64,000 nucleotides of DNA from a virus (lineage: Duplodnaviria; Caudoviricetes). Below, one piece after another: positions 7,255 through 37,505 of the stretch. A program made the translations under genes and the position numbers. The stretch is taken from positions 1 to 64,000 of IMG/VR virus record IMGVR_UViG_3300043579_000163; one strand, 5' to 3'. The number at the start of each line of letters is the position of its first letter. The stretch's first letter is position 1. A model generated the notes under the pieces. That model had not been told where the DNA came from and did no database searches. It saw only the letters and a program-made list of their open reading frames with translations.

Positions 7255-7409
7255 TGGCATGGTGGGGGATTGAACCTCCTGGCGCACCTCGCGAAGCGCG
7301 CCCTCCACAATCCAGGCTCCGAATGCCGGGCGGCGTCATACGCCCCAGGGACCAACCCAGGGCTTTTGCAAAGCACCGTAGTCTCCCGACCTCCGCCTGT
7401 TACCGTGCC
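7255..7409 (-). ncRNA. Expanded tRNA-like RNA (155 nt)
   Basis: 5' GGCACGG pairs 3' CCATGCC-A (6/7); GGAGG-TTCAATC-CCCCA imperfect T-arm; about 120 nt multi-hairpin insert; flanked by T-runs. Confidence 0.5.
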
Positions 7410-7411
7410 AT

Positions 7412-7634
7412 AAAAATTGTCCTCGCCACAGTTTCGAACTGTGCCTTTCGAGACTTGCCCGACGTGCTACCAACCACACTCACGAGGTTGCTGACGGGTG
7501 ACGGTCCCCGGATTACACAGACACTGTCCCGGTTTCCCACTGTGGCGCATGGGCGGGGCTATTCTGTTCATCACCCTCGCTAACGCGTTACACTACGTCC
7601 TTCCATCTGGCTCCGTTACGAGCACTATCAGCAC
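7412..7634 (-). ncRNA. Putative structured non-coding RNA (about 220 nt)
   Basis: Own promoter with no ATG following; stems GTGCTG/TAGCAC, GGGTGA/TCACCC, CCTCG/CGAGG, CACAGTT/AACTGTG, GG-GAAA-CC; ends at a T-run. Confidence 0.55.
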
Positions 7635-7637
7635 CTC

Positions 7638-7665
7638 AACCTACCACACCAGGGCCCGGCGTCAA
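7638..7665 (-). promoter_or_regulatory. Class I promoter driving the non-coding region
   Basis: TTGACG-16-TAGGTT. Confidence 0.7.
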
Positions 7666-33601: not shown

Positions 33602-33770
33602 ACGAACAGACACCTTCATCGCCGGCACCACGATGTTCCGGGTGACCCCAGGTCCTTGGCTCCGCAAACGCGGAGTGATTTTCGGGCCATGGTGCCACTC
33701 GCGCCGAACCGCCGTGCTGATGTGGATTGCGAACGTGTCCGACTGCCACGATTTTCACCCGGGCCTATGA
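33588..33770 (+). CDS. Hypothetical protein
   Basis: Stop overlaps the recombinase ATG. Confidence 0.55.
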   Translation: MITIERTDTFIAGTTMFRVTPGPWLRKRGVIFGPWCHSRRTAVLMWIANVSDCHDFHPGL

Positions 33771-34480
33771 AAGTTTTCGCCTACCTGCGGGTCAGCACCT
33801 CAGCGCAACTCGACGGAGGGGGGTTCGAACGCCAGCTCGACACCATTAAGGTTCTCTGTGCTGCGCGTGGGTGGACTATCGCGCGCACCTTCAGGGACCA
33901 GCAGAGTGGATGCACTGAGTTCGATGACCGCTCGGGACTGCATGAAATTCTGTCCCTGGCCGGAGAGGGCAGCGCGCTTGGGATTGATACCGTCATCGTG
34001 GAGAACGCTTCTCGCGTGGCGCGTGACCTGATGGTGCAGGAGATTTTTCTGTGCGAATGCCGCAAGAGGGGCATCAAGGTTTACGCGGCGGACTGTGGCG
34101 AGGAGCTGGTCATGGACGGCGCAGACCCCTCGCGCGTGATGATTCGCCAAATTTTGGGCGCGGTGTCACAGTATGAAAAGGCCATGACTGTCCTGAAGCT
34201 CCAAGCGGGACGGCGCAAGAAGGCCCGTGAAACGGGCAGGCCTTGCGGGGGCCCCAAACAATACGGGACCACCGCAGGTGAACGCGCAATTCTCACCGAC
34301 ATTAAGATGCGCCGACGCCAGGGTAAAACCTTTCAGGAGATTGCCAACGAGATGCGTGAAATTGGGTATCCCGCGCCCCGTGGCGGATATTGGCACCGCT
34401 CCACGGTCTGGACAATACTGACTCGGGATGCGGAACGGAAAGCGGCGCAGAACCGATTTGACCAAGACAACGACCAATGA
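33767..34480 (+). CDS. Serine recombinase (resolvase/invertase catalytic domain plus short C-terminal recombinase HTH)
   Basis: MKVFAYLRVSTSAQ (catalytic Ser), IVENASRVARD, C-terminal TFQEIANEM...GGYWHRSTVWTIL. Confidence 0.9.
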   Translation: MKVFAYLRVSTSAQLDGGGFERQLDTIKVLCAARGWTIARTFRDQQSGCTEFDDRSGLHEILSLAGEGSALGIDTVIVENASRVARDLMVQEIFLCECRKRGIKVYAADCGEELVMDGADPSRVMIRQILGAVSQYEKAMTVLKLQAGRRKKARETGRPCGGPKQYGTTAGERAILTDIKMRRRQGKTFQEIANEMREIGYPAPRGGYWHRSTVWTILTRDAERKAAQNRFDQDNDQ

Positions 34481-35285: not shown

Positions 35286-35561
35286 ATGAACACAAGAATC
35301 CTAACTGCCCCCAATGGCTCGCTGATGCGCGCCGCGCACATCGTCTCGGTATCCCCGCTGTTTGAATCGGACGTGCTTGGCACAGATGCCTTCGCAGTTT
35401 ATACCGTGGGCAGCGAGGAGCCCTTTGTGTTCTGCGCCCCCGACCAGGGCGGGGGGCCAAAGAGTGCTGAACGGCGAAAGAGAGAAACCGCCGAGCTGCA
35501 CCAGCAGTTCATTAATCAATGGATTGTGTCCCTGGACAACACAACATATCTAAAAAACTAA
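35286..35561 (+). CDS. Hypothetical protein
   Basis: Tightly packed ORF. Confidence 0.55.
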   Translation: MNTRILTAPNGSLMRAAHIVSVSPLFESDVLGTDAFAVYTVGSEEPFVFCAPDQGGGPKSAERRKRETAELHQQFINQWIVSLDNTTYLKN

Positions 35562-35571
35562 GCAAGGTCCC

Positions 35572-35766
35572 ATGAACCCTGAATCTCTGAAACCTCTCCC
35601 CCTTGGTCTGCCCTCGGCTTTTGTACGGGCCGAACCTGGAAAGCCAACACCCACTCTCGTGCTCGCGGAAATCCTTCGAATAGCCGCGGAACCAAGGTGC
35701 ATAAACCCGACGGAGAAACTTATTTTTGATGGCCAAGGTCGAGTGGCGAACCGAAGGCGTTACTGA
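35572..35766 (+). CDS. Hypothetical protein
   Basis: Tightly packed ORF. Confidence 0.45.
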   Translation: MNPESLKPLPLGLPSAFVRAEPGKPTPTLVLAEILRIAAEPRCINPTEKLIFDGQGRVANRRRY

Positions 35767-35878
35767 TATGTTCTCTCTTGCAACAATCCAGCGTCTAAAT
35801 AACACCGTCGAATTGCGAAAAGCGAAACGTCGGGCGCGCGCACTGAATGCGAAGAATAAAAAGAGCCCAGTCCTTAAG

Positions 35879-35908
35879 TTGACAAGGGGCCCTTGAGCGA
35901 GATATGTT
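35879..35908 (+). promoter_or_regulatory. Sigma70-like promoter for the RNA cluster
   Basis: TTGACA-18-TATGTT, no ATG-led gene follows. Confidence 0.6.
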
Positions 35909-35921
35909 CAGGTGTTAGAAA

Positions 35922-35934
35922 TGTTCTTTGAAAA
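35922..35934 (+). promoter_or_regulatory. boxA-like antitermination element
   Basis: TGTTCTTTGAAAA, matching the rRNA-operon boxA consensus of many bacteria, about 15 nt after the -10 box. Confidence 0.6.
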
Positions 35935-36003
35935 AGGTTGTTCCTTTGTGGCCAACCCGCTGTGTAACAACTCAGCCGCCAGGGCCGCGATAGGGTCCAC
36001 CAA

Positions 36004-36126
36004 TTTCTCCGAGTGTCTTACCGAATGGTGGGAATCTGCCGCAGAGCTATGCGGGCCCACCATAGAGGGAATGGAAGCACACCGCCTCAAAAGGCGTTAG
36101 TCCGGGTTCGAGTCCCGGGGAGAGGA
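36004..36126 (+). ncRNA. Expanded tRNA-like RNA (123 nt), degenerate CAA anticodon arm
   Basis: TTTCTCC pairs GGAGAGG-A (7/7 with 2 G-U); perfect T-arm CCGGG-TTCGAGT-CCCGG; 52-nt hairpin insert after the 5' acceptor strand. Confidence 0.55.
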
Positions 36127-36127
36127 A

Positions 36128-36736
36128 CAGACCCGAGCAGGTCATATAAAAGGCTCGATGTCGAGACGGGGTTTCGCGAAGTTGCAGTTCTCCTGCACCC
36201 GAAAGGACGCATGGCCCCGCACCAGCTCGACTATTGTGCGAGGGACTAGGATGGTCCCCGCCACATTTTTTGTGACCTGACGCAACAACTCTTCCTGGAC
36301 CCAGGTTGAAAAGAATAGAGGAAAGGTTAAATGCCCTACGGACGGTCTCCAATTTTGACGCGACTCCGAACAACAGGCCGCAGGACCCCCAGGGAGGCCA
36401 CGGCAAGCGGGGAGGAACACGGGGGCGCGCCAGCCGGCGAATGGCTCAAAGTCCGAGAGGGCTACCGGGAGCCCGCCAATCTGAACTACGGTTCAGAGCC
36501 CAGTCGAACTGGCGTAACCAACCCCCGCTTACTTTTGATGGGCTCGTCGTCTAAGAAAGGACACCGGCTAAATATCCATCACTGGACTCGAAGCTGCGCC
36601 TTAAACAGACCGCTTCGACCAAACCAACTTCTCCGGGGAGAGCGGGGTTTCGGCCCTGAAGTAACGGCGTCTTAAGCGCACGTGGAATAACGCCCCGGAA
36701 ATTTTGCGGTAGAGGCCACAGAAAAGCCAAACCGCT
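36128..36736 (+). ncRNA. Hairpin-dense putative structured RNA(s), several modules separated by T-runs
   Basis: Stems GTCGAG/CTCGAC, AAGCGGGG/CCCCGCTT, TCCGGGG/CCCCGGA; tetraloops TACG, TTCG, GAGA, GAAA; no convincing ORF. Confidence 0.6.
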
Positions 36737-36738
36737 GC

Positions 36739-36811
36739 GCCGCCGTGATGCCTGGGGCCAACTGGAACTCCAAATCCCGGTGGGAGGGTTCAATCCCCTC
36801 CGGTGGTGCCA
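36739..36811 (+). tRNA. trnW: tRNA-Trp(CCA) with shortened D-arm and encoded CCA end
   Basis: GCCGCCG/CGGTGGT acceptor, G73, CCA; anticodon loop CTCCAAA; perfect T-arm GAGGG-TTCAATC-CCCTC; 73 nt. Confidence 0.75.
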
Positions 36812-36818
36812 TTTTTAT

Positions 36819-36941
36819 GTTCCCTGGGCCGGGGGAAAATGCCCGGTTCGATAGCAGGGTGCTCGCGGTGAGATATCTAGCCGCGGGAACTGGAAGGGTA
36901 AAGACCAGCGACCCGAAGCCGTTCAAATCGGCGGGGGAACA
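36819..36941 (+). ncRNA. Expanded tRNA-like RNA (123 nt) with three-way-junction insert
   Basis: GTTCCCT pairs GGGGAAC-A (7/7); GCCG-TTCAAAT-CGGC T-arm; GCCGGG/CCCGGT hairpin; GGGT/ACCC stem enclosing two hairpins. Confidence 0.55.
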
Positions 36942-36950
36942 GCCCTTTTC

Positions 36951-37505
36951 ATGGACAACGAGTTCAGTAAGGCCCTGGTGCCAACCGAATGCATCTCTTA
37001 CCCTCGGTCGGGCCATCATGCGCTGGTGGACCTACTGCGTGCCTACTTTGGCGAGGGATTCGTTTACGGCGAGATTTACCGGGAGCCAACCGCAGTTCTG
37101 GGCAGCCTCTTTCCCCCGGTGAACTACCAGAAAAATCACGACTTCGACCTGCTGACCCCCGTGGACGCCGCGCGCAACTATCTCGTGCAGGTCCGCAACC
37201 CGCTCGAGTCCATCGAGAGCTGGGAGACCTTTGACCGGCGCGTGGGCCACACCCCAGACACCGCCGAGGCCCGGCTCGATTTCTGGAACGCCTTCGTGAA
37301 GAAGTGGGTCTTCGGGGAGGTCCCGAACCGACTGGTGGTCTGGTATGAGGACCTTGTGGGCGCCCCCGTGGAGACCTGCACCGCGGTGATTCAGTTCTTG
37401 ACCCGCACCCAGAACGTCGACATGGACCTTCTCGCGAGGTCCCTGGCCCTCCGTCCCCTGGCTCGCCGCCGCCCGCACGTTCCCCGCCGCTACCTGAAGG
37501 CCTGA
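36951..37505 (+). CDS. PAPS-dependent sulfotransferase
   Basis: SYPRSGHH (5'-PSB loop), VRNPLESIES (3'-PB), VWYEDLV. Confidence 0.8.
   Translation: MDNEFSKALVPTECISYPRSGHHALVDLLRAYFGEGFVYGEIYREPTAVLGSLFPPVNYQKNHDFDLLTPVDAARNYLVQVRNPLESIESWETFDRRVGHTPDTAEARLDFWNAFVKKWVFGEVPNRLVVWYEDLVGAPVETCTAVIQFLTRTQNVDMDLLARSLALRPLARRRPHVPRRYLKA

Follow-up and report, generated by a model that had tools for sequence, protein, structure and literature searches.

A phage non-coding array that probably consists of separate small structured RNAs flanked by aberrant tRNA-like genes

Large phage RNAs such as GOLLD and ROOL lie beside transfer RNA (tRNA) genes (bioRxiv 10.1101/2024.12.08.627333), and the question raised by positions 36128-36736 of the phage genome studied here is whether this 609-nt stretch encodes one RNA of that kind or a series of independent small ones. 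The window, i.e., the whole stretch of DNA analysed, comprises the first 64 kb (64,000 nt) of a 72,818-bp IMG/VR virus record (IMGVR_UViG_3300043579_000163) that CheckV rates as complete. A preliminary description, made from the letters of the window, had noticed ornate helices in the stretch and had proposed either one large RNA with an embedded tRNA or a polycistron of new small RNAs. Its helices, both of its CCA ends (36263 and 36351) and its T-runs are all found in the sequence. In this study, we compared the stretch with related arrays of other phages, and the comparison points to an array of separate small structured RNAs, which we regard as its probable organization.

Layout of the array and independence of its modules

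The flagged stretch forms the centre of a non-coding array on the plus strand (about 35909-36950). This array occupies ~1.05 kb without a convincing gene, between small plus-strand open reading frames (ORFs) ending near 35870 and an ORF starting at 36951. About a dozen distinct related arrays were collected from viral and metagenomic contigs (L002, L003, L009, L011, L015/L018, L016, L021, L024, L033, L035 and L059/L061), sought via the downstream 184-amino-acid ORF, two core patterns of module M1, a pattern of module X and the scaffold of module M2; a search through the upstream 180-amino-acid ORF found no relatives. The following features carry the argument (z, folding energy relative to shuffled sequences):

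35879-35908, plus strand: sigma-70-like promoter (TTGACA, 18 nt, TATGTT) with a predicted start site near 35914
36160-36231, plus strand: M1, a 72-nt three-way-junction RNA with 12 distinct homologues and covariation
36238-36271, plus strand: M1t, a GC-rich hairpin after M1 that ends in CCA (36261-36263), then a U6 run
36357-36404, plus strand: conserved leader of M2, common to L002 and L059 and partly to L003, L021 and L033
36405-36536, plus strand: M2, a multi-helix RNA followed by a U-run, with an 8-bp closing stem, covariation and z = -3.0

Modules are gained, lost and reordered between relatives. The order in the window differs from that in L002, whose neighbouring protein is 95% identical; module Z is common only to L021, module U is unique to the window, and the neighbours of M1 are wholly different in L009, L011, L015 and L033. 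Over 3.3 kb, a locus from another metagenome (L024) shares 98-100% identity with the window. At window position 35935/35936 it has an additional 81-nt Met(CAU)-tRNA-like gene (L024:2547-2627), and it is devoid of 612 nt between the 5-bp direct repeats 36298-36302 and 36910-36914 (junction L024:2990-2994). M2, V, U and the Trp-like gene are lost completely, Z and the last module for the most part, and M1 is present in the deletion strain. The deletion and the reordering of modules are therefore incompatible with a single folded 600-nt RNA of the GOLLD or ROOL type.

The promoter matches at 10/12 positions and is the sole promoter-like site in 35500-37200. The same -35/-10 arrangement stands ahead of the array in L002, L011, L021, L033, L035 and L059, and the relatives have a common layout in which TTGACA, 16-18 nt and a TATGTT-like hexamer are followed by a short leader and a same-strand string of short units. 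No plus-strand terminator was found in the array. Encoded CCA ends lie at 36003, 36263, 36351 and 36811, and the motif CCA plus up to 2 nt plus TTT occurs four times in the 1036-nt array and 23 times in the whole 72.8-kb genome, i.e., it is ~12-fold enriched in the array. Across 11 arrays it was counted 36 times in forward and four times in reverse orientation. After a U-run, the next base is usually G. The reading as a polycistron of new small RNAs, put forward in the preliminary description, is thus supported for M1 and M2, given their covariation, the single promoter without internal terminators and the punctuation by CCA and U-runs; for Z, V and U it is plausible, yet unproven.

The conserved motifs M1 and M2 and the neighbouring module X

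M1 consists of an outer helix P1, the invariant helices P2 and P2b, a variable hairpin P3, a GAAA-capped P4 and a conserved 5-6-nt bulge with ACCA. Its pairings 36160-36165/36226-36231 and 36167-36171/36215-36219 (GTCGAG/CTCGAC and CGGGG/CCCCG) enclose the hairpin 36183-36197 (TGCAG/CTGCA) and, at 36199-36206, a 2-bp stem capped by GAAA (CC-GAAA-GG), as first described. In a MAFFT alignment of ten distinct copies, per-column identity was 92% and P3 had compensatory changes at 4/5 pairs. In the more distant L059 and L061, P1 and P4 are wholly re-paired with different bases. When the 12 copies were aligned to a covariance model, 99.2% of cells were paired and 10/21 pairs were compensatory (P1 4/6, P3 5/5, P4 1/2); the observed values were reached by 0/500 shuffles, and slid controls paired at ~35%. 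P2, P2b, the internal loop between these and the ACCA-containing bulge show no change in any copy. One-sided changes in M1 (U-A to U.G and C-G to U.G) are tolerated only with the plus strand as RNA, and M1 is therefore read as a plus-strand RNA.

The covariance model finds one M1 per array and had no matches in 23 loci gathered via module X. Thus, M1 marks one clade of ~70-kb phages. In bacterial genomes, the M1 pattern gave chance matches only, within coding sequence, and therefore provides no clue to a prophage or host. A hairpin and a U-run always follow M1, and next come other RNA modules, not an ORF. The counterparts of M1t have different yet complementary stems in L002, L003, L016, L035 and L059; its CCA is not conserved, and the 4-6-nt spacer ahead of the U-run is. 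Because of this spacer, M1t has no terminator score.

In M2, 36405-36412 pairs with 36523-36530, and three hairpins lie inside this outer stem, in agreement with the preliminary description. RNAalifold on four type-a copies recovered the 8-bp outer stem, the same three hairpins and an inner two-part helix, with compensatory changes at 9/37 consensus pairs (4 sequences); for the 5' domain, 7/20 pairs were compensatory (6 sequences). The covariation that had been proposed as a check on the stretch is thus present in M1 and M2. The alignment of the type-b interior had no covariation and is uninformative. The outer stem and leader are kept in relatives, and the interior occurs in at least four unrelated versions. 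Swapped interiors are seen in L059:2865-3003 (minus strand), L003:3698-3790 and L009:4148-4239, as though the stem were a holder for exchangeable inserts; the version in L059 holds a T-arm-like hairpin. In L018 the stem of M2 is itself decayed, with two mismatches. Judged by this comparison, M1 and M2 are each a new conserved RNA motif of unassigned function. Their topologies are nested junctions, not cloverleaves.

The array holds a further recurrent module just outside the flagged interval:

35945-36003, plus strand: module X, with 23 distinct copies in 29 viral contigs

Module X is 54-62 nt long (loci L036-L058, some on contigs of 123 and 205 kb). Its elements are, in order, a variable hairpin, a hairpin resembling a T arm, a microhelix of 4 bp whose third pair is G.U, ACCA and a U-run. 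The microhelix pairs are G-C, G-C, G.U and C-G. The second hairpin often has a T-loop-like 7-nt loop and was left unaligned by MAFFT, so its stems were counted by a script, which gave ~10 different Watson-Crick stems. Among copies not ascertained by the X pattern, the G.U third pair occurs in 9/10; in L035 the fourth pair is compensatorily changed, and in L059 the third pair is G-C. The combination G1-C72, G2-C71, G3.U70, A73 and CCA is the alanine identity set used by alanyl-tRNA synthetase (AlaRS) on minihelices and transfer-messenger RNA (tmRNA). By this analogy, X would be a scaffold for an alanine-accepting minihelix that is widespread in uncultured phages, a proposal that is part of the tentative functional reading given below. 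With other tRNA-end mimics (the tRNA-like domain of tmRNA, AlaRS minihelix substrates, YrlA and plant-virus tRNA-like structures) X shares the T-arm-like hairpin and the microhelix. It differs from these in its length of 54-62 nt, in an acceptor-like helix that is a closed hairpin, in having no tag ORF, and in belonging to a phage without Ro60. M1 and M2 are not of this type.

Proposed processing, possible function and alternative explanations

We infer transcription and processing of the array from its sequence. In the proposed mechanism, one sigma-70-like promoter would drive a string of independent small RNA genes in a ~1.05-kb plus-strand non-coding unit. These genes would be of two kinds, namely aberrant tRNA look-alikes (module B, the Trp-like gene and the last module, to which relatives add Met, Ala, Arg and Phe) and non-tRNA structured RNAs (M1 with its hairpin, Z, M2, V and U). 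For cleavage by RNase P, U at -1 and G at +1 are favoured; RNase E cleaves in A/U-rich trailers, and exonucleases trim to the encoded CCA. The units of the array appear to be punctuated by (N)CCA, a short U-run and G, as in bacterial polycistronic tRNA precursors, and it is this precursor-like layout, with its promoter and without a terminator, that suggests dicing of the transcript by host tRNA-processing enzymes. Most likely, host tRNA-maturation enzymes would cut the transcript into stable small RNAs, with RNase P cutting at the U/G junctions and RNase E or Z together with 3' exonucleases trimming at the CCA and U-run. The non-tRNA modules might ride on the same processing system and so be released too. 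Polycistronic tRNA precursors of bacteria and phages share with the array the single promoter, the absence of internal terminators, CCA-ended units, A/U-rich spacers and a G at the next unit. In contrast to them, no unit within 36128-36736 is a cloverleaf with an anticodon loop, and here it is we who infer the processing.

That phage tRNA clusters include additional small stable RNAs has been known for ~50 years. The closest analogue of the present array is given by the stable RNAs C and D (species 1 and 2) of phage T4, which are same-strand non-tRNA RNAs abutting tRNA genes in a phage cluster; rnaC (139 nt) and rnaD (119 nt) lie directly after tRNA-Arg. Like module B, rnaC has a canonical T arm before the 3' strand of its closing stem, and it ends in ACA; rnaD has a CCA end, as do Z and the M1 hairpin. 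In contrast to rnaC and rnaD, M1 and M2 are without a tRNA-like terminus, and in a filter-free search of the T4 tRNA region with the M1 model the best hit had 7.5 bits, with no sequence or model similarity to rnaC or rnaD. In the T4 locus (L063:1409-1672), rnaC folds far better than shuffles (z = -4.6). The function of RNAs C and D is still unsettled in the literature (PMC9697503). Compared with the T4 cluster, non-tRNA modules here outnumber tRNAs, the tRNAs are aberrant, and module content varies among close relatives. By analogy, the array is a new and more extreme variant of this known but unexplained arrangement.

A likeness also exists to theta ribozymes, minimal ribozymes resembling that of hepatitis delta virus (HDV), which are small structured RNAs that abut phage tRNAs and help to mature their ends (PMC10879173). 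However, no HDV-type model of Rfam matched, and inspection by eye, the sole check of this point, gave no fit of M1 to the nested double-pseudoknot helix order. Hammerhead, twister, pistol, hatchet and HDV-like ribozymes had no Rfam match at E <= 10, with the theta sub-family judged by eye only.

What might such an array do? A proposed role of phage tRNAs is to counter defences that target tRNAs (PMC10264068), and the rapid turnover of modules resembles that of accessory or counter-defence loci. Our best guess, held with low confidence, is that the array provides accessory RNAs that act on host translation or on tRNA-directed systems of the host, the RNAs being either a supply or decoys for defences that target tRNAs. 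Much less certain still is the guess that M1, the sole invariant and always-present member, would bind sequence-specifically. Taken together, it is tempting to speculate that M1 belongs to a new class of functional RNAs (a ligand or protein binder, a decoy of RNase P or the ribosome with its internal ACCA, or a catalytic RNA), that the array is a fast-evolving toolbox of phage RNAs whose cargo is freed by host tRNA-processing enzymes and acts against tRNA-directed defences or on translation, and that X is an alanine-accepting minihelix. This combined reading is a tentative one that we hold to be possible and rather doubtful. Should RNase P-type processing set these RNAs free, and should their targets be host tRNA enzymes or tRNA-targeting immunity, they would form a new RNA layer of phage counter-defence. 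In any case, the clade extends the T4-style arrangement to clusters made mostly of non-tRNA or tRNA-mimic RNA, in which M1 is near-invariant and the other modules are exchanged at the pace of anti-defence genes. The list of unexplained structured RNAs gains at least M1 and M2 as two well-supported motifs, along with the widespread minihelix X, and all three are small enough for direct biochemistry.

Several points weigh against an array of functional small RNAs. Most modules do not fold clearly better than shuffles: tested singly among M1, M2, U and Z, M2 (z = -3.0) is the lone standout, and M1 reaches z = -1.3. For the full 609 nt, z was -1.3 (plus strand) and -0.3 (minus strand). The comparison with shuffles that had been suggested for the stretch therefore came out weak for the stretch as a whole, positive for M2 and negative for Z. 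As thermodynamics alone is weak, the case beyond chance rests on comparison. Here, the M1 alignment behind the best statistics was fitted to a covariance model, and most M1 homologues were found by core patterns, which inflates the invariance of the core; positions outside the search patterns are likewise invariant. M1 is not directly bordered by U-runs, and neither M1 nor M2 has an acceptor or T-arm mimic of its own, so that their release as separate molecules is suggested solely by how their neighbours would be processed. Genes for a CCA-adding enzyme, a Ro60/TROVE protein and RtcB are absent from the phage, which gives no pointer to function from these proteins. Finally, part of the stretch may be non-functional debris, as suggested by an orphan module (U) and a recombination scar (V). 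The modules in question are:

36272-36356, plus strand: Z, with a 4-bp closing stem, one unpaired nt, CCA at 36349-36351 and a U-run
36537-36626, plus strand: V, an apparent chimera with a blastn breakpoint at 36568/36569; z = -0.9
36627-36705, plus strand: U, with a 7-bp closing stem (36632-36638/36693-36699), two hairpins and a U-run; z = -1.3

Z has its sole homologue in L021 (85% identity), with one compensatory pair, and folds no better than shuffles (z = +1.3); as a genuine module it is weakly supported. V begins with 33 nt (to 36568) that correspond to the start of a tRNA-like module present in L002 and L035, and its 3' part of 54 nt (36569-36622) corresponds to the end of a different L002 module. 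The breakpoint thus looks like the scar of a recombination between modules. In L002, the two modules fused in V stand separate. The stem of U (TCCGGGG/CCCCGGA) with its UUCG-type hairpin is present as first described, and U has a homologue in none of the collected loci.

According to the first alternative, the stretch is mostly debris: a tRNA cluster would be decaying, recombination between its tRNA-like repeats would leave non-functional fragments, and only the tRNA-like genes would matter. The fusion in V, the orphan U and the poor fold of Z fit this view, as does the 612-nt deletion, which suggests that most of the stretch is dispensable, and the tRNA-like genes themselves are below gathering thresholds. 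However, M1 is near-invariant and covarying across phages with a neighbouring protein only 60-95% identical, and M2 covaries too; debris would not retain compensatory pairs. We consider this explanation unlikely for the stretch as a whole.

Another alternative treats M1, alone or with its hairpin and U-run, as a cis-acting element, such as a riboswitch aptamer or a put-like antiterminator that would govern read-through from the array into downstream sulfotransferase, glycosyltransferase and head genes, with the rest being leader RNA. M1 has an aptamer-like profile, since its junctions and inner helices P2 and P2b are invariant and the outer P1, P3 and P4 covary. The hairpin with U-run that always follows M1 fits such an element, and in the window and in L033 the array leads straight into the next ORF without a new promoter. 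In contrast, fresh promoters follow the array in L011, L021, L035 and L059. Between the promoter and M1 there are 170-300 nt that include tRNA-like genes, several modules follow M1, the hairpin with its 4-6-nt spacer does not score as a terminator, and no known riboswitch family matches. A cis-acting role is thus quite improbable.

The single large RNA raised at the outset, of ~600 nt or more with an embedded tRNA in one fold, possibly assembling into a multimeric particle like GOLLD or ROOL, fares worse. It would agree with the abundant tetraloop-capped helices (dense GNRA/UNCG-type hairpins), with the absence of internal terminators and with the context, as tRNA-like genes lie on both sides of the stretch in a complete phage record and the arrays of relatives hold true tRNAs. 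However, Rfam 15 gave no match in the window at the gathering score and, for 35500-37100, none in the stretch at E <= 10, with large-RNA models included; in relatives only tRNAs were matched. The Rfam search that the preliminary description had suggested was thus negative for the stretch. The fold of the whole stretch is hardly better than shuffles, no conserved colinear or long-range architecture is seen, and the parts are independently mobile: they are reordered, swapped or absent in relatives, M1 stands among other neighbours, and the near-identical L024 does without 612 nt. We regard a single large RNA as very improbable, and this half of the original proposal is given up. A DNA-level element (replication origin, pac site or recombination hotspot) or a small-protein coding region, as might be suspected from the many GC-rich inverted repeats, the serine recombinase gene 1.4 kb upstream and chance ORFs, is scarcely credible and largely refuted already, since the covariation includes G.U pairs that only one strand can form, the punctuation by CCA and U-runs is strand-specific, and the ORFs have no family above threshold and frames broken by 1-2-nt indels.

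Flanking tRNA-like genes and genomic setting

The preliminary description had placed the stretch inside a tRNA cluster. With default settings, ARAGORN calls no tRNA in the whole genome, and at a lowered threshold it reports only a borderline Trp(CCA)-like gene (36736-36811). No tmRNA was found by ARAGORN -m at a lowered threshold, and ARAGORN and Rfam detect no canonical tRNA or cloverleaf with a 7-nt anticodon loop within 36128-36736. The flanks are instead formed by aberrant tRNA look-alikes:

36004-36129, plus strand: module B, tRNA-like left flank with a 7-bp acceptor stem and a canonical T arm; z = -2.2
36706-36736, plus strand: leader hairpin before the Trp-like tRNA, 97% identical in L002 and absent in L016; z = -1.8
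36739-36811, plus strand: aberrant tRNA-Trp(CCA)-like gene, right flank, called by ARAGORN at the lowered threshold only
36819-36941, plus strand: last module, tRNA-like (acceptor stem and T arm) with a folded insert; z = -2.6

Module B has a large folded insert in place of the D and anticodon region. In its L016 homologue, acceptor pairs and insert hairpins are altered compensatorily, and the supposed anticodon loop becomes a 4-nt loop. In the Trp-like gene the D loop has 3 nt, the anticodon stem contains an A.C mismatch and the CCA is encoded; the gene scores 22.5 bits with Rfam, below the gathering score; in L016 its T stem is changed compensatorily and changes in the acceptor stem preserve pairing. 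The 3' part of the last module is common to L021 and L024. Arrays of relatives hold true or near-true tRNAs (Phe with 43 bits, Arg(UCU) with 29.4 bits and a marginal Met(CAU)). The tRNA-like genes of the clade (36739-36811; L002:1423-1493; L011:5320-5391; L009:3370-3448) have 3-nt D loops, and in several the universal U55 of the T loop is replaced by G. Because of these traits, ARAGORN and Rfam miss or underscore the tRNA-like genes of the clade. An Ala(UGC)-like gene with G3.U70, called by neither program, is present in relatives too.

The phage has ORFs for a DNA polymerase, a helicase, an exonuclease, an endonuclease VII and tail-fibre-like proteins. Its DNA polymerase has only ~25% identity to that of any cultured phage, and blastn against cultured phages gave no match. 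The serine recombinase gene lies at 33656-34480, 1.4 kb upstream of the RNA region, and an NAD-dependent sugar epimerase is encoded downstream. The ORF directly after the array (36951-37505) has 58-95% identity in all relatives found through it. In distant relatives (60% protein identity, L005-L008), glycosyltransferase genes, not an array, lie upstream of this shared ORF.

Chance ORFs of 78-119 amino acids cross the stretch, with no Pfam or PHROG family above threshold, and relatives carry 1- and 2-nt indels that break their frames. At 36316-36333, a strong Shine-Dalgarno-like purine run stands 5 nt before an ATG, from which a 114-amino-acid frame runs through M2. The ATG and the next six codons are common to L021, and beyond these the frame diverges; it belongs to no protein family and is deleted in L024. 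A second promoter-driven non-coding locus was observed on the minus strand at 7255-7665. A T arm, an acceptor-like 3' strand and a U-run close this locus, which resembles module B and the last module of the array.

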